A stretch of DNA of 43,810 nt from a virus (lineage: Duplodnaviria > Heunggongvirae > Uroviricota > Caudoviricetes): IMG/VR virus record IMGVR_UViG_2671180268_000014, one strand, 5' to 3'. The first letter of the stretch is position 1, and each line of letters opens with the position of its first letter. Below the pieces are notes generated by a model. The model was not told the DNA's origin and did no database searches. It worked only from the letters and a program-made list of their open reading frames with translations. A program made the translations under genes and the position numbers. Shown piece after piece: positions 2,794-22,192 of the stretch.

Positions 2794-5386
2794 TTGCATA
2801 TTCCTTAGCCCAGCGGGGCAGTGATAACGTCTTAATAGCTGGCCATTCATCGGTATTGAGGCAGTCAGCCAGGGTTCGCAGATTGCGGTGATATTCCAGC
2901 TGACCTGCCAGTTTTGCTTCTTCGCCCATCATGAAAATTTCAACCGGATAACGTCCGCATTCAATAGTTGTGCTGGCAACCAGAAAAACGAAAGTTGGCT
3001 GCACTCCAAACTGTGCTTCATAACCGTCACTGTAGAATGCATCCTGAACGTGATAGCGGTAGTCGTAATAAGCGGTTTTGAATCGTTGAATATCCGCCGT
3101 AGTTTTCACGTCCATGATCCAGTGAAATTCAGGGATAATTTTGTCCGGACGGCACCGACACAAAATTGCTGTTTCAGGATCTTCCCAGTAAATTGATGAT
3201 TCAGCGTGTCCGGCGCTTTCAACAAGCCATTGCCCCAGCGGCAAAGCCATAACGCTCTGATACATGAGTTCAATTTTCCGGCCTTCTTCGGCAGTGATAA
3301 CCGTTTTTCCTGTGCTTGCGCATTCCCTCAGAAACGCTTTCTCTTCTTCTTTTCCGGAGTTTGTCCGGCGGTTAAATTCAGGTGCTACGATAAAGCGGTT
3401 ACTGAATTCTTCCGGCTCAAGTACCCGGCAGTGGAAAGCGGTTCCTAAATCGAGCGTTTTTGTCTTTGTGGTGTCCACGGGGGCATTTTTACGCCACAAA
3501 TACAGTGCCGGAGTATCAGCAATGTCATCGAGCTGAGACTTACTGACACCGGGACCCGCGTGGTAATTCTCATTCGAAATTCCGTAATAAATACCTGGCT
3601 CTATGTCTTCTACGATTACGGGATCTGCGACTTCGCCAGTTTCATCACTGCAATCGCGATGCGGATCGCTGCCAGCATTCTCATTGTGCGGATGTTCAGC
3701 GCCTTCCATTTCCTCCGGATCATTTTCCTTAGCTTCAACCTGACTCTCTTCATCGAATGTTTCCTGGTATGTTGCGTCGCCCATCACCGCACCACAGTCA
3801 GGGCAGTTATCCCCGCCAGTCTGGCCGCAGGCATTGCAGGCTATTTCCGGTTCCTGTTGCACTACTGGCTCAGGTTGATTCATATCCGGGCTGGTTTTTT
3901 CCGTTTCTGGCTGGTTCTGGTACACACAATCGCGAGTCTGGATCCCCTTTACCCATTTCGGATCGTTCGGGTCGCTAATTCCGTCAACAAATTCACCACG
4001 TGATGCAGCAAGCAATTTATCGGCATCGACAGGATTTTTTGATGGAATGTTTTTCCGGGCTTCATGGAGTTCTGCCCGCAGTTCCTGATATTTCGCATCA
4101 ACAGAATTTACCTGTGACTGAGCATCCAGCGGCTGCGTGTCCTGATGATGTTCAGTTGCGTCCGGTTCCATTGTTTCAGCCTCTCCCTGTTCAACTGCCG
4201 TTGTTCCAGATGGTTGCGGTTTTTCTTCATCATCCTGTTTTCCTTCTTCTGTTACTCGCTGCGGCATCGGGGCAGAGGAGCGACCGCAGGCAATATCCAC
4301 GATTTCCGGATCAGGGTTGGCATGATCGGTTTCAGTCAGTACTTTGTTCAGATATTCAGTGACGTGCGCGGGGATGACCTCGATCCCAATTGGTGCTTCT
4401 TTTACGGACGCAACCACGATGGCGCGGGAATAATCCAGCCCGCCAGGCATGGTGATGAATTTGTCGCGGAAAACAGAAAAGGGCGGTTTATTTTCAGCGA
4501 TAATTTCCTCAATGCGTTTAGCGTGTGCCGGATGAAGGTTATAGATGTCCAGATCCATTGAACGGGCCAGTACGCCAGTGGCTACGTCCCGCGCCAGTGA
4601 CGTCAGATCGTGTACGAAACCTTCGCCGCGATCGGTGAGGTTTCCGCCGCCAGCATTAGCACCGGAAGCCGTGCGAGTGATGTGTGAAACACGATTACCC
4701 TTCATCCACTCTTTTGTCAGCAGTCCTCGATCGGTGTAGTCAGCGTTCAGGTATGCTTCGAAAAAAGCAGTTATCAGTCCCAGGTTTGAATTACCAGGAT
4801 TAGGGAAAACTTTGTCAGTGTCACGAACCAGTTTGTGGAGTTCGCGAATTTCCAGCGGGTCGAGCAGGCTGGTTTTGTGGGAAACAGCCAGGGCAGTAAC
4901 AGCCGGTAGTTCTTCAGCCCGAGCAATGTGTAATGCCTGGAGTCCGTCGCGTGAAACGTGCGTTACCGGTTTTTCGCTGCCGTGTTGAGCAAGCCAACGA
5001 ATGGGCAGTTCCTGGCCAGAAATTGGGAGTAGCATATTCTCCTCAATCTCAGTCATGTCTTCGCCGTTGACGTTGGTATTGCCTTGATAGTGAGCGTTGT
5101 CTGGTGCTGCTCCCGGTTTTAGTTCCCATGTCATGGAGTCTTTGCTGAGTTGATAGCGTTCACTCCAGGTAAAATCGATCTCACCTTCAGCGGGCAGGTC
5201 ATTAACGACAGGAAAATTCGTGGCAACAGCTTTAAAATAGCTGCTCAGTTTTTTACCTGACTTAACGATCAGGTAGTCCAGAGTGGCACAGGTCGATTCA
5301 AAATCGTTGCTTGCCCACAGGACGACGTCAGGTTCACCGGATGATTTTTTCGCTTTCCGTAACAGGAAGAGTGGTTTTGTGCTCAT
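2786..5386 (-). CDS. recE: Exodeoxyribonuclease VIII (RecE), full length 866 aa
   Basis: 866-aa ORF immediately upstream of recT, same strand; length and C-terminal nuclease region fit Rac RecE. Plus-strand ORFs inside it are antisense artefacts. Confidence 0.9.
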
Positions 5387-16324: not shown

Positions 16325-16614
16325 TGGTGAATTTACGTAAAGCGGCTAAAGGCCAGATGTGCCAGATCAGAATCCCTGGCTACTGCAATCACAATCCCGA
16401 AACCTCTGTGCTGGCGCATTACAGGCTGGCGGGGACGTGCGGAACAGCGACAAAACCACATGATATGCAGGCGGCGATAGCCTGTAGCTCATGCCACGAT
16501 CTAATCGACGGGCGGGTAAAAACCAGCGATTACACCAAAGAAGAATTGCGCCTGATGCATGCTGAAGGGGTTTTTCGCACACAAGAAATCTGGAGAAAGA
16601 AAGGTCATTTATGA
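16324..16614 (+). CDS. YbcO-like DUF1364 protein (putative nuclease)
   Basis: RKAAKGQMCQIRIPGYCNHNPETSVLAHYRLAGTCGTATKPHD and CSSCHDLIDGR align with recalled DLP12 YbcO including the conserved cysteines. Confidence 0.6.
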   Translation: MVNLRKAAKGQMCQIRIPGYCNHNPETSVLAHYRLAGTCGTATKPHDMQAAIACSSCHDLIDGRVKTSDYTKEELRLMHAEGVFRTQEIWRKKGHL

Positions 16615-17153
16615 TTTACCCAACGAATACAGGAAAAAGCGGAGAACACCTTCGCCTCACCACGCTGGAAAGTGTCTGGATTCAGGGAAAACTACGTATG
16701 TGGGGGCGCTGGTCGTATATTGGCGGTGGCAGGTCAGGGAATATGTTCAATCAGTTGTTGGCATCCAAAAAACTGACGAAAACAGCCATTAATGAAGCCC
16801 TGCGCAGAATGAAAAAAGCGGGAATAGAGAAAGCTGAGCTGGAAGCGTTTTTGCGAGAGATGATCAACGGCAAGCAAAAGAGCTGGCTGGCGCATTGTAC
16901 TGATGCAGAGGCGTTATGTATTGATCGAGTCATAAGTGAGGTGCTGGCAGAGCATCCAGGATTGATTTGCATTCTCCGGCAACGCTATGAAGGGCGGGGG
17001 ATGACTAAGCGCAAAATGGCTGAATTGCTAAATGATGCACACCCAGAGTGGTGTTTTAGCACATGCGAAAAACGGATTGCTAATTGGTTAGCTGTTGCTG
17101 AGTATGCCCTATATATTCCCATGCGTGAATCATTTGCTGAGAAAATGGCTTGA
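16611..17153 (+). CDS. Late-gene antiterminator Q-like protein
   Basis: Last ORF before a strong terminator and the lysis genes. N-terminal W-rich segment LRMWGRWSYIGGG resembles Q-family proteins. Overlaps the ybcO-like stop. Confidence 0.5.
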   Translation: MIYPTNTGKSGEHLRLTTLESVWIQGKLRMWGRWSYIGGGRSGNMFNQLLASKKLTKTAINEALRRMKKAGIEKAELEAFLREMINGKQKSWLAHCTDAEALCIDRVISEVLAEHPGLICILRQRYEGRGMTKRKMAELLNDAHPEWCFSTCEKRIANWLAVAEYALYIPMRESFAEKMA

Positions 17154-17233
17154 TTTCTTACGTATAAACTGCTTCAATTTTGCTATGCTTCGCAAAGCTG
17201 TATCGCGAGGCGGATTGCAGACATGGACATCGT

Positions 17234-17260
17234 AAAAAAACCGCTTAATGCGGTTTTTTT
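17234..17260. terminator. Rho-independent terminator, bidirectional (tR'-like)
   Basis: Perfect hairpin aaaaaaaccgc-TTAA-tgcggttttttt, A-run on one side and T-run on the other, about 80 nt downstream of the Q-like stop. Confidence 0.7.
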
Positions 17261-17580
17261 ACGTCAGGAAAGCAGGGGAGAATGCTGCTAGTTGGGCAAC
17301 TGGTCTTTCTGCTCCAAATTATAACAGAGACCAGTTATAGTTTCGGTGCTGTGTTTTTTTTACAATATTGTGATAACACATTGCTGGCGGGAGTTTTGAT
17401 ATTTCTTGGCAGGGGCTGATGATGCGTTATCCTGATGTCGTCAACTCATATAAAATGAGATGAGAGATCATTGCAGGGTGGTTTGTAATTCGCTGTTTAG
17501 CGGGACAATATGTTGTCTGATACAAGACACCCGACGCCTCAGATTACTATAATAAAGACGAAGCATCCTTTGTATTGACC

Positions 17581-17606
17581 AACCGCCTGTTTAGGCGGTT
17601 CTTTTT
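17581..17606 (+). terminator. Rho-independent terminator-like hairpin
   Basis: aaccgcc-tgttta-ggcggtt followed by cttttt, in the non-coding stretch between Q and the lipoprotein genes. Confidence 0.45.
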
Positions 17607-18197
17607 GGGCTGGTTTATTGTATGCCAAATGATTATTAAAAAGGTTGTGTTAATAACAAGATCCGAAATAATATGCCTGCATATTTTTATCTTGCTTATA
17701 TTCTGCATATTGTGCATAGCAGGCTCATCCCTGCAATCAAAACTGTATGATGAGTATTTTTTGTTTTCCTTTTTTCCAGTCATCTGATGATGACCTGCTT
17801 CTTTTTAATCCGGATCGACATCAGTTTTTTAAGATAATTCCTGCGAGTTATATGCATAAATGCCACAAACTCCGCATTTTATGTGGTTGGGAGTTGCCGG
17901 GCGCGCAGTGAGTTTGCTAAGAAAACTCCTGCATGGTGAATCCCCCTGTGCGGTGGGGTGATACCATTAACCTTTTCTGTCGCCGACAGGTATCACGAAC
18001 ATTTTGTTCACCGGGAGGCACCCGGCACCATGCACTTCAATAGATTCTCTCCACATTATGGATATTCTTTCAGAATATCCCACGCAGACTTTGTGTAAAT
18101 GTTAACAAATGTGCGTTTTATTTGATCTGATTCGCTGTTTGAGCGTCCAAAACAACGGTATATATAATCCTTTACTATATGACATATGTGAGGAAAA

Positions 18198-18626
18198 ATG
18201 GGTTTTCGTAGCGCATCAATTCTTACGTTGATTATTAGTGGGATTATTATCGGGTGCACTGATGCTGTATCGACAAATTATCATGACCGTACATCATATT
18301 ACTCCGATAAAGCAATAGAGACACAGTATGTGAGTTCATCTGAACGTACTTCTGATGTTAGTGAGGATATCCGTCTGTATGCCCATCAAATCAAGAGCGC
18401 CATCGAAAAACAGTTCGGGGATGCGAGTAAGTATTCAGGAAAAGAGTGTACACTGAGAATGCATATGGCCCCGAATGGCCTTCTACTGGAGGTTAAAAGA
18501 GAAAGTGGAGACCTCGATTTATGTCGTGAAGCGATGAATGCGATAAAGAATGCTGATATACCTGCCCCCCCTTCGCCGGAAGTATATAAAGTATTTCAAA
18601 ATGGGGTGCTGGATTTTAAACCCTGA
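18198..18626 (+). CDS. Lipoprotein with TolA C-terminal (domain III)-like domain
   Basis: Signal peptide plus lipobox (IIIGC, Thr at +2). C-terminus YAHQIKSAIEKQFGDASKYSGKECTLRMHMAPNGLLLEVK...PEVYKVFQNGVLDFKP closely parallels recalled TolA domain III. GAGGA SD. Confidence 0.6.
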   Translation: MGFRSASILTLIISGIIIGCTDAVSTNYHDRTSYYSDKAIETQYVSSSERTSDVSEDIRLYAHQIKSAIEKQFGDASKYSGKECTLRMHMAPNGLLLEVKRESGDLDLCREAMNAIKNADIPAPPSPEVYKVFQNGVLDFKP

Positions 18627-18776: not shown

Positions 18777-19172
18777 GTGGGATTAAAGAAAATCGTTATG
18801 TTGACTTTTTGGGTCGGTTTTGTTGCGGGATGCACACCTTTACACCCTTCAGATTGCCACAAAACTACTGCTACAGGTAGTTGCAGTTCAGGACGCTGGG
18901 ATGATCAGGATGAATGGGGGGCGCAAGCGCGGGGAATCAGAGCTGCAATTAATGCCAAACTTGATGAGCCGCATAACTGGAAAGGGAAAAAATGCAGGTT
19001 GCATATGGAATTCTCTCAGGATGGCACGGCGTTAAAAATATCTACCAGTAACGGTGATAAAGCCTATTGCGAAGCGATAAAGTCCGCAGCTCATAAAGCC
19101 AAATTTCCGGCCTTCAACAATCCGGAAGTCTACAGAGATTTTCAGAAATCTGGCTTTGACATGCGAGGTTAG
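18777..19172 (+). CDS. Second lipoprotein with TolA domain III-like C-terminus (paralogue)
   Basis: GTG start with GAGGAG SD; lipobox VAGC, Thr at +2. C-terminus KKCRLHMEFSQDGTALKIS...YCEAIKSAAHKAKFPAFNNPEVYRDFQ is collinear with the upstream paralogue. Confidence 0.55.
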   Translation: MGLKKIVMLTFWVGFVAGCTPLHPSDCHKTTATGSCSSGRWDDQDEWGAQARGIRAAINAKLDEPHNWKGKKCRLHMEFSQDGTALKISTSNGDKAYCEAIKSAAHKAKFPAFNNPEVYRDFQKSGFDMRG

Positions 19173-19423
19173 CTCTTCAATTACTATATCTCATTCATAG
19201 CAAACTGACAGATTTGATGATGTTCTATATACGAAACCTGTGATGTCAAGTCTGAGCTAATACAAATAAACATAATATCAGAGAAATACATTTTATTAGC
19301 TCGCTACGGCGAGCTTTTTATATTGCATCGTCTCCAGCATATATATCAATTAAGGCTCTGATTGATGTGTCTGAAAGCCTACACATAATAACTATGCCAT
19401 CCGTTCCGTGCGGAGGTGAGGCT

Positions 19424-19639
19424 ATGAAATCCATGGACAAAATTTCAACAGGCATTGCCTACGGCACCTCCGCAGGCAGTGCTGGCTACTGGTTTTTACA
19501 GTTGCTCGATAGAGTAACTCCGTCACAGTGGGCTGCAATCGGTGTGCTGGGTAGTCTGGTATTTGGCCTGCTGACGTACCTGACAAACCTTTATTTCAAG
19601 ATTAAAGAAGATAAGCGCAAGGCTGCGAGAGGTGAATAA
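19424..19639 (+). CDS. S: Pinholin, phage 21 S-type (dual-start MKSM)
   Basis: [71 protein letters not shown] matches recalled S21. The ORF-track start at 19367 is probably too long. Confidence 0.8.
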
Positions 19640-20597: not shown

Positions 20598-20734
20598 AAT
20601 CTTAACTACAATATGATTCATTTTGATGATTGTTTCATAAGGAACAGTGAAGTAAGATCTAAGAGGAGTTAAATTTTATACAGTATAATCATAATATTGC
20701 AGCAAGGTGGTTATAATTGAAAGAATATTTAGAT

Positions 20735-22192
20735 ATGAATACATCTCATGTAAGAGTTGTTACTCATATGTGTGGGTTCCTGGTTTGGCTCTATAGTCTT
20801 TCAATGTTGCCACCAATGGTTGTAGCATTGTTTTATAAAGAAAAAAGCCTGTTCGTTTTCTTTATAACTTTCGTTATATTTTTTTGCATTGGTGGCGGAG
20901 CGTGGTATACAACTAAGAAATCTGGCATTCAATTACGTACCCGTGATGGGTTTATTATAATTGTAATGTTTTGGATTTTGTTTTCTGTTATTAGTGCATT
21001 CCCTTTATGGATTGACTCAGAACTTAATTTAACGTTCATTGATGCTCTGTTTGAAGGGGTTTCTGGAATAACAACAACAGGAGCAACTGTAATTGATGAT
21101 GTTAGTTCATTACCTCGGGCATATTTGTACTATCGGTCACAGTTAAATTTTATAGGTGGTTTAGGAGTTATTGTTCTGGCGGTTGCAGTATTGCCATTAT
21201 TGGGTATTGGTGGTGCAAAGCTTTATCAGTCAGAAATGCCGGGGCCATTTAAGGATGACAAACTCACTCCCCGCCTGGCCGATACGTCACGGACACTGTG
21301 GATAACTTATTCTTTATTAGGTATTGCTTGTATTGTCTGTTATAGACTTGCAGGAATGCCTTTGTTTGATGCTATTTGTCACGGGATTTCCACAGTTTCG
21401 CTTGGTGGTTTCTCAACTCATAGCGAGAGTATCGGATATTTTAATAACTATTTGGTTGAGCTGGTGGCTGGTTCTTTTTCCCTGCTATCGGCTTTCAACT
21501 TCACTCTTTGGTATATTGTTATTAGCAGAAAAACGATAAAACCTTTAATCAGAGATATTGAACTTCGTTTCTTTCTGTTAATAGCCTTAGGGGTGATCAT
21601 TGTTACCTCTTTCCAGGTCTGGCATATAGGTATGTATGACTTGCATGGAAGTTTTATTCATTCGTTTTTTCTTGCCAGCTCCATGCTCACTGATAATGGT
21701 TTAGCTACGCAGGATTATGCAAACTGGCCCACGCACACGATAGTGTTTTTGCTGTTGTCAAGTTTCTTTGGGGGATGTATAGGTTCAACCTGTGGTGGAA
21801 TTAAGTCACTTCGATTTCTTATACTTTTCAAACAAAGCAAACACGAGATAAATCAGCTTTCTCATCCCAGAGCGTTGTTGAGTGTAAATGTAGGAGGGAA
21901 GATAGTTACAGATCGTGTAATGAGGTCTGTATGGAGTTTCTTTTTTCTTTATACTCTCTTCACGGTGTTTTTTATACTGGTGTTAAATGGTATGGGATAT
22001 GATTTTCTTACATCATTTGCAACAGTGGCTGCATGTATTAATAATATGGGATTAGGTTTTGGGGCTACTGCATCGTCATTCGGAGTGCTTAATGACATTG
22101 CAAAATATTTAATGTGCATAGCTATGATTCTTGGTCGCCTTGAAATTTATCCTGTTATTATATTGTTTTCAGGTTTTTTTTGGCGCTCCTAA
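20735..22192 (+). CDS. trkG: TrkH/TrkG-family potassium uptake protein
   Basis: 485-aa polytopic membrane protein from MNTSHVRVVTHMCGFLVWLYSL, matching recalled Rac TrkG. AT-rich relative to neighbours. ORF-track start at 20717 adds 6 residues. Confidence 0.85.
   Translation: MNTSHVRVVTHMCGFLVWLYSLSMLPPMVVALFYKEKSLFVFFITFVIFFCIGGGAWYTTKKSGIQLRTRDGFIIIVMFWILFSVISAFPLWIDSELNLTFIDALFEGVSGITTTGATVIDDVSSLPRAYLYYRSQLNFIGGLGVIVLAVAVLPLLGIGGAKLYQSEMPGPFKDDKLTPRLADTSRTLWITYSLLGIACIVCYRLAGMPLFDAICHGISTVSLGGFSTHSESIGYFNNYLVELVAGSFSLLSAFNFTLWYIVISRKTIKPLIRDIELRFFLLIALGVIIVTSFQVWHIGMYDLHGSFIHSFFLASSMLTDNGLATQDYANWPTHTIVFLLLSSFFGGCIGSTCGGIKSLRFLILFKQSKHEINQLSHPRALLSVNVGGKIVTDRVMRSVWSFFFLYTLFTVFFILVLNGMGYDFLTSFATVAACINNMGLGFGATASSFGVLNDIAKYLMCIAMILGRLEIYPVIILFSGFFWRS

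Follow-up and report, generated by a model that had tools for sequence, protein, structure and literature searches.

A putative late-operon leader with a PR'-like promoter, pause element and terminator behind a DUF1133 Q-like gene in a Rac-type prophage of Escherichia coli

The region between the Q-like gene and the lipoprotein genes

The DNA analyzed here (the window) is a stretch of 43,810 nucleotides (nt) from a tailed-phage record, IMGVR_UViG_2671180268_000014, and represents a Rac-type lambdoid prophage of Escherichia coli. The prophage was assigned to this type because a full-length gene for the RalA antitoxin small RNA (sRNA) is present at 1557-1735 on the + strand (Rfam RF02694, 225 bits). 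The potassium transporter gene trkG (20717-22192) lies inside the prophage, directly after Rz/Rz1. In the Rac prophage of K-12, trkG is placed likewise, but that prophage is not known to have the stretch from Q to the endolysin gene. This study concerns the 1,044-base gap at 17154-18197, between a gene for a Q-like protein of 180 amino acids (16611-17153) and two lipoprotein genes that begin at 18198. About 450 complete E. coli genomes hold these 1,044 bases, or most of them, at 99.4% identity or more, and the gap is unannotated there.

A first-pass annotation, made from the letters of the window, had described the gap as an AT-rich, non-coding candidate PR'/qut/tR' region with a possible small RNA. 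The features that it listed are all in the sequence, at or a few bases from the places it gave. The gap is moderately AT-rich, with a GC content of 35-45% against 47-52% in the upstream genes. We found three more features: a match to the STnc100 RNA family at 17901-18087, a hairpin at about 17777-17806, and a promoter-like site for horizontally acquired accessory (moron) genes at 18139-18168. All features described below are on the + strand. We consider it likely, with a probability of about 0.75, that the region is the non-coding regulatory leader of the late (lysis) operon of the prophage, in which a PR'-like promoter, a pause element and a tR'-like terminator would be overridden by a phage 21-like Q protein of the DUF1133 family, with a mosaic leader behind them. 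The region is ordinary in kind, but it is a clean and previously undescribed example for the DUF1133 Q family.

The earlier statement that no convincing open reading frame occupies about 900 bp agrees with our comparison, which revealed no conserved open reading frame in 17264-18197. Hidden protein-coding genes were considered and rejected, as similarity to relatives extends over all six frames and switches frame. An 88-codon frame shared with one relative, L039, was also rejected. This frame crosses the terminator, contains 1- and 2-nt indels and shows 7/9/13 differences over the codon positions, that is, no third-position bias.

A predicted late promoter and pause element at the end of the Q-like gene

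The -35 element of the putative PR'-like late promoter, TTGATT (17150-17155), overlaps the stop codon TGA of the Q-like gene (17151-17153). It is followed after a 17-nt spacer by TTCAAT (17173-17178), so that the promoter-like pair noticed at first pass is present. The second hexamer is part of an extended -10 element, TGcTTCAAT (17170-17178). The spacer proper (17156-17169) contains TTACGT (17158-17163), which is located 26 nt before the pause element and is a candidate Q-binding element. Behind the -10 element lies a putative sigma-dependent pause element, TGcTATGCT (17181-17189), with the hexamer TATGCT at 17184-17189. Transcription is predicted to start at 17185-17187. The -10 and pause elements (17170-17189) form an 11-nt direct repeat of the form TGCT.., TGCTTCAATTT and then TGCTATGCT, and both carry TG dinucleotides of the extended -10 type. 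The two elements are therefore one helical turn apart.

We compared this arrangement in 27 DUF1133 loci from contigs that represent one genome per species, plus phage and E. coli loci. The layout TTGnnn-N14-TGn-TTnAAT-N5-TAnGCT was present at or after the end of the DUF1133 gene in 20 of the 25 genome-contig loci checked. These loci come from Escherichia, Shigella, Citrobacter, Klebsiella, Enterobacter, Buttiauxella, Phytobacter and other genera, and their flanking sequences differ. In the motif-bearing loci TTGnnn is located exactly 17 nt 5' of TTnAAT, TGn together with TTnAAT was found in 25 of the 27 motif-bearing entries, and TAnGCT is conserved 5 nt after TTnAAT. The pattern TTG-N17-TGnTTnAAT-N5-TAnGCT has one match in the window, against 0.00 expected from shuffled sequences. 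The -35 element and the spacer lie inside the coding tail in homologues of 192 amino acids and in non-coding DNA in the window type, with the same layout in both. The order of promoter, pause element and terminator is kept across genera whose Q-like proteins are 52-64% identical. A sigma-54 promoter at TGGCAGGGGC (about 17408) was also considered and was rejected by eye only, as its spacing did not fit.

The first terminator and a predicted short RNA

A tR'-like intrinsic terminator is located at 17231-17263. Its perfect 14-nt arms (17231-17244 and 17250-17263) are preceded by A7 and followed by T7. The predicted fold has a free energy of -19.7 kcal/mol (z-score, z, -6.5) on the + strand and of -16.0 kcal/mol (z -6.2) on the - strand. 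The perfect bidirectional terminator reported behind the promoter is thus real and bidirectional in form. In the DUF1133 loci a terminator with a GC stem and a T-run follows the promoter layout after 35-100 nt. In 80 viral contigs with a Q gene at least 93% identical to that of the window, homology to the window usually ends 50-60 nt past the stop codon. All variants seen among these contigs carry their own terminator at the same distance, and there are at least four alleles. The terminator has been replaced without loss, as a functional terminator predicts.

Between the predicted start and the terminator, the minimum-free-energy fold contains a 5' stem-loop, GCUUCGC-N11-GCGAGGC (17187-17211). 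Other locus types have a stem-loop of different sequence at this place that starts with the same G. Transcription from about 17185-17187 would give a terminated RNA of about 75 nt. This RNA would be the positional counterpart of the 6S RNA of phage lambda and of IsrK of Gifsy-1.

The Q-like protein is related to phage 21 Q

The putative antiterminator gene upstream of the promoter (16611-17153) belongs to Pfam DUF1133 (E 2.5e-107), and its match to Phage_antitermQ (PF06530) is borderline (26.1 bits, cut-off 26). We built a DUF1133 profile from 25 homologues with 52-93% identity. Among solved structures, this profile matches only phage 21 Q (21Q; 6jnx/6p18), with an E of 4.3e-6. Alignment of DUF1133 with 21Q by hhalign gave a probability of 94.7% and an E of 6e-8 over 132 columns. 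DUF1133 was also listed as Q on the basis of HHpred in a survey of Shiga toxin (Stx) phages (PMC8136144). DUF1133 homologues with 84-89% identity in L012 and L016 stand directly before Rfam isrK, as antQ does in Gifsy-1. AntQ of Gifsy-1 is Q-like and has been shown to interfere with termination (PMC4825925). On these profile and positional matches we identify the protein as a distant relative of phage 21 Q and Gifsy-1 AntQ.

The distance from 21Q is considerable. Identity is only about 23%, DUF1133 proteins have about 35 extra residues after the N-terminal helix, and they lack the long loop of the helix-turn[loop]-helix motif, which in 21Q enters the minor groove. In 21Q, bases are read by A124, R127 and R128 of helix H6, and S93, K94 and T125 contact the DNA backbone (PMC6606751). 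The DUF1133 helix xTCxxRI aligns with ATCRRE of 21Q. The backbone contacts S93/K94/T125 are retained in DUF1133 as (S/T)K and T, and the positions of R127 and R128 vary.

These base-reading residues vary together with the type of promoter spacer in the DUF1133 loci. The window has the helix S-TC-EK and the spacer TyTTACGyrTAAAC. The helix x-TC-RR occurs with the spacer (A/G)GTGAGC(A/C) in most of 8 loci. The helix R-TC-E[S/T/N] occurs with GTTGCGCGG in 7 loci, plus L020, which has no promoter motif, and R-TC-CS occurs with an isrK-type promoter in 3 loci. Reduced to short cores, EK goes with TTACGy, RR with GTGAGC(A/C), E[STN] with TTGCGCGG, and CS with the isrK-type promoter. The RR-type loci have one TGAGCA upstream of the pause element, and its distance of exactly 26 nt is that of subsite 1 of the Q-binding element in phage 21. 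This spacing is the strongest sign that Q binds the spacer and that TAnGCT serves for pausing and not as a -10 element. As a separate observation, the swap point in loci of the L012/L016 type falls in roughly the final 30 codons of Q. Therefore, the C-terminal helix and the promoter move together.

The mosaic middle of the leader

Behind the first terminator the leader is a mosaic. Diverged homologues of 17327-17900 have 63-78% identity, and in them a cluster of phage tRNA genes (Ile, Arg or Lys, Thr, Gly) lies immediately 5' of this DNA. No tRNA genes were found in the window, and relatives carry tRNAs at this place. The counterpart in the window, 17213-17326, has no tRNAs and keeps the structured trailer of the cluster only in part. 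A relic of the trailer at 17294-17362 is homologous to the DNA 3' of tRNA-Gly in L040, L042, L039 and L004. In the relatives the trailer is a multi-hairpin structure closed by GCACUG/CAGUGC and followed by a U-run, with z down to -5.35, versus -0.5 in the window. Two to four tRNA genes lie between tR' and the remainder of the leader in L039 (1885-2194), L040 (2108-2417) and L004 (3354-3504).

The first-pass annotation had pointed to a 9-bp inverted repeat followed by a T-run at this place. The repeat is exact (17298-17306 and 17328-17336), but the T-run, a T8 stretch at 17353-17360 that also falls in the trailer relic, lies 16 nt away, and a function is not supported. The stretch folds no better than shuffled sequences (z -1.1 and -0.5). 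We do not regard the repeat as functional because its 5' arm is specific to the window, the structure is not conserved and the fold is not significant, and we rejected it as a functional hairpin or terminator.

A second terminator at 17581-17606, which had been described as a terminator-like hairpin, is real and conserved. It consists of an 8-bp stem (17581-17600) followed by CTTTTT (z -2.1). It belongs to a decayed STnc100-like unit at 17440-17606, in which the 5' arm of P4 has been lost through a 17-nt deletion near 17526. In L040, the homologue of this unit matches STnc100 over the full length, though below the threshold (27.3 bits, E 6e-4), and the alignment includes the terminator. The STnc100 13-mer CGGGAGGCACCCG is exact in the L040 and L004 homologues. 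The L040 match and the 17-nt loss in the window together indicate that the second terminator is the intact terminator of the decayed unit. A third terminator-like hairpin lies at about 17777-17806 and is followed by CUUCUUUUU (free energy -7.8, z -3.9). At this position L040 has a strong terminator (-16.5).

A structured RNA of the STnc100/PasD family

A covariance-model search for known sRNA families, which had been proposed as a check of the first annotation, revealed STnc100 (Rfam RF02076) at 17901-18087 with 86.6 bits against a gathering score of 47. Positions 1-206 of the model are fully matched. At a relaxed threshold, the other Rfam matches in the window were terminator look-alikes (Thr leader, AgrB and others). 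The suggestion of a small RNA in the gap is thus borne out by this match and by the position of the PR'-tR' product of about 75 nt, mostly on grounds that the suggestion itself had not included.

The stems of the STnc100 copy are P1 (17930-17938 and 18026-18034), P3 (17958-17965 and 17989-17996) and P4 (18011-18025). We compared 15 copies from related prophages. In the P1 closing stem, five of the eight pairs show compensatory changes and none is broken, and the P2 and P4 hairpins are invariant. The window copy has the invariant cores GAAUCCCCCUGUGCGG.GGGG and CCGGGAGGCACCCGG of the family together with this covarying closing stem. Its core is predicted to fold into a four-way junction (-45.6 kcal/mol, z -4.1). 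The copy is of a short type with an AU-rich 3' hairpin (18060-18080), GGAUAUUCU-UUC-AGAAUAUCC followed by CACGCAG, and it has no U-tract. The consensus 3' terminator, a GC stem with a U-run, is also absent from the tolA-linked copies of mEp460 and M6 and from L007_a. Because the U-tract terminator is lacking, the window copy may not be released as a discrete RNA.

The window copy sits upstream of a TolA-like gene. One copy of the family is located directly after stx1B in H-19B, and others are upstream of TolA-like or SASA-esterase genes. Like the window copy, those near stx and esterase genes are in sense orientation, with Q on one side and the lysis genes on the other. The family has been tied to Hfq-bound PasD small RNAs of enteropathogenic E. 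coli (bioRxiv 10.64898/2026.05.13.724894) and to EcOnc27/sRNA103 next to stx2B (PMC12711010). Expression and binding to Hfq are reported in these papers for other copies only, namely EcOnc27/sRNA103 and PasD (PMC12711010; bioRxiv 10.64898/2026.05.13.724894). STnc100 copies also occur in tandem arrays of three to five copies about 250 nt apart, mostly with their own terminators, in L007 (3577-4692), L008 (2702-3681) and L039 (2936-4293). These arrays lie upstream of SASA-esterase or tolA-like genes.

A predicted late switch and its known counterparts

Read together, these elements suggest the following switch. When Q is absent, a sigma-70 promoter at the end of the Q gene would initiate transcription at about 17185-17187, TGcTATGCT in the initially transcribed sequence would act as a sigma-dependent pause element, and termination at 17231-17263 would give the RNA of about 75 nt with its 5' stem-loop. 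After induction, the DUF1133/AntQ-type Q would be made and would bind the promoter spacer, with TTACGT (17158-17163) as the candidate site. Bound Q would load onto the paused polymerase and make it resistant to terminators. The polymerase could then read through the terminators at 17231-17263, 17581-17606, about 17777-17806 and 19298-19315 into the holin, endolysin and Rz genes. The presence of several + strand terminators between the late promoter and the lysis genes fits the need for processive antitermination.

The closest match is pR' of phage 21. The curated record of phage 21 gives, in order, TTGACA, tcat, TGAGCA, aa, TGAGCA, the -10 element, the start, the pause element TAAGCT at +2 to +7, and a terminator. 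As in the window, the promoter comes at once after the Q gene and an intrinsic terminator lies less than 100 nt further on. The pause element TAAGCT of phage 21 and TATGCT of the window are the same type of hexamer at the same place. The reading residues and the hexamer differ, being RR and TGAGCA in phage 21 and EK and TTACGT in the window. Furthermore, the window promoter has an extended -10 element and a separate 5' stem-loop before the terminator. The PR'/qut/tR' reading of the first annotation is supported, on computational and comparative grounds, by this match, by footprinting over DUF1133 loci of many genera, and by the homology of the Q-like protein to 21Q.

The PR'-qut-6S-tR' region of lambda follows the same general plan: the promoter behind Q is constitutive, positions +1 to +6 form a -10-like pause element, the short RNA is terminated, and the late genes lie past the terminator. 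The lambda 6S RNA is 194 nt long. In lambda, the -10 and pause elements (TAAATT-N6-AACGAT) are 6 nt apart versus 5 nt in the window, and an extra -35-like element is needed. The Q protein of lambda is of a different and unrelated family (PF03589).

In Gifsy-1, a promoter right after the antQ-type gene produces a terminated 77-nt RNA and a read-through mRNA (PMC4825925). The Q-like protein of the antQ-isrK locus is of the same family as that of the window, and the -35 element likewise overlaps the stop codon. The short terminated RNA with its 5' hairpin, together with read-through, resembles what is predicted for the window. However, the promoter and RNA sequences are unrelated, and orf45-anrP-isrJ and the C4 module are not found downstream in the window. 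The C-terminal helix of the Gifsy-1 type carries CS and that of the window EK, and the isrK-type promoter has no TAnGCT.

Alternative explanations

Several points weigh against the proposed switch. The -10 hexamer TTnAAT does not have the highly conserved A at position 2, and TGnTAnGCT resembles an extended -10 promoter itself. Homologues with 84-89% identity (L012, L013 and L016) have a very different downstream promoter that does not contain TAnGCT. Unlike phage 21, the window spacer contains no TGAGCA and no obvious direct repeat or second subsite. The association between helix and spacer could be mere linkage, as only about 100 bp separate them and the spacer of the homologues of 192 amino acids is itself coding sequence. 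An AlphaFold2 model of the Q-like protein, made from a 28-sequence alignment, was too poor to use (mean pLDDT 54), and sequence profiles were used instead. AntQ of Gifsy-1 has been reported to be broad-acting rather than specific for a single site (PMC4825925). Finally, this prophage type is defective in many E. coli strains, including K-12, so that some hosts may carry the switch only as a relic.

The main rival explanation takes up the weakness of the -10 hexamer. It states that TGcTATGCT (17181-17189) is the true promoter, an extended -10 with a start at about 17196, that TTCAAT and TTGATT are parts of a protein-binding site or coincidence, and that there is no pause element. TAnGCT has the two key -10 bases (A at position 2 and T at position 6), which TTnAAT does not, and TGn precedes TAnGCT in many loci. 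However, TTGnnn at exactly 17 nt and TGn before TTnAAT are conserved even in non-coding DNA, and relatives of the isrK type have the consensus TATATT at the position of TTCAAT. In phage 21, a hexamer of the TAnGCT type is the experimentally curated pause element and has the same spacing to TGAGCA, and a start at about 17196 would halve the conserved 5' stem-loop. We regard this alternative as quite unlikely. The view that the whole interval is a decaying, functionless spacer of a defective prophage, in which motifs persist through recent divergence, is far less probable still. The identity of at least 99.4% of the middle in the roughly 450 E. coli genomes that hold most of the region would suit such a spacer, and there are clear relics, as the tRNA cluster has been lost and the STnc100-like unit is broken. 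Decay does not account for a layout that is kept across genera at 52-64% protein identity, for terminator alleles that were replaced and not lost, for the compensatory changes in the STnc100 P1 stem, or for the intact holin, endolysin and Rz genes downstream.

Another possibility, which we consider unlikely, is a free-standing sRNA gene of the IsrK type whose product of about 75 nt acts in trans, with Q antitermination inessential here and AntQ-type proteins acting globally. An alignment of Rfam isrK (RF01394) to 17187-17260 shows a 5' hairpin, a spacer and a terminator arranged alike, but its score of 21.6 bits is far below the gathering score of 50. As for IsrK, the layout is that of a short terminated RNA directly after an antQ-type gene, and true isrK is present at exactly this position after the DUF1133 gene in the close relatives L012 and L016. 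The 5' hairpin potential of the short RNA is conserved. Moreover, IsrK is trans-acting, and AntQ has effects on the transcription of the core genome (PMC4825925). On the other hand, the orf45-anrP target of IsrK was not found downstream, where 17264-18197 contains no conserved open reading frame. IsrK-like pairing in trans between the short RNA and the downstream leader was tried and rejected, as 26 of 60 shuffles were as good. An IsrK-type gene also leaves the conservation of the pause hexamer and the phage 21-like spacing of TGAGCA unexplained, and it is compatible with the antitermination switch, which we prefer.

Taken as a late switch, the region provides a testable map for DUF1133/AntQ, a Q family whose function is still given as unknown in databases. 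The family is found in hundreds of prophages of E. coli, Shigella and Salmonella, including some Stx phages. The residues and DNA sites can be aligned with those of the solved phage 21 complex, which permits the direct design of an experiment to swap specificities. The stack of terminators and small-RNA units would show how lysis and moron genes stay silent in the lysogen. The current understanding of Q antitermination and of prophage small RNAs is not changed, and both are extended to a new case. More tentatively, and with more doubt than confidence, we propose that DUF1133/AntQ may be a fourth, loop-less branch of Q proteins that loads through a single spacer subsite, read by the code RR-TGAGCA, EK-TTACGT and E[S/T/N]-TTGCGC, and that tandem STnc100-type units perhaps act in cis on the late transcript and not only in trans. 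If this is true, the code would explain the swapping of late-gene switches among lambdoid prophages as one module of Q C-terminal helix and promoter.

TolA-like morons and lysis genes downstream

The leader ends at two tandem lipoprotein genes (18198-18626 and 18777-19172) that encode TolA C-terminal domains (PF06519, E 2e-23 and 1e-14). A promoter-like site for these genes, TTGAGC-N18-TATAAT, is located at 18139-18168 and matches the consensus at 10 of 12 positions. In prophages whose Q genes are of other kinds, the stretch 18007-18197 still accompanies the tolA-like gene, with an identity of 99.5-100%. The TolA-like pair is a self-contained moron within the late operon. As a speculation, the two lipoproteins could act as decoys for TolA-using colicins or filamentous phages. 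Behind the morons, just upstream of the holin gene, lies a further terminator (19298-19315) with a 7-bp GC-rich stem and a T-run (free energy -13.0, z -3.8). The holin gene (19367-19639, PF04971) and the endolysin and Rz genes that follow are intact.

Related loci carry other elements downstream of the DUF1133 gene. In L012 (3075-3276) and L016 (3088-3268), isrK, c4-a1b1 (L012) and C4 antisense RNA were found after this gene. In L017, a Superficieibacter prophage, a cspA thermoregulator (Rfam RF01766, 155.6 bits) is located at 3555-3955 in the late leader downstream of the DUF1133 gene, so that a different kind of moron occupies this slot.

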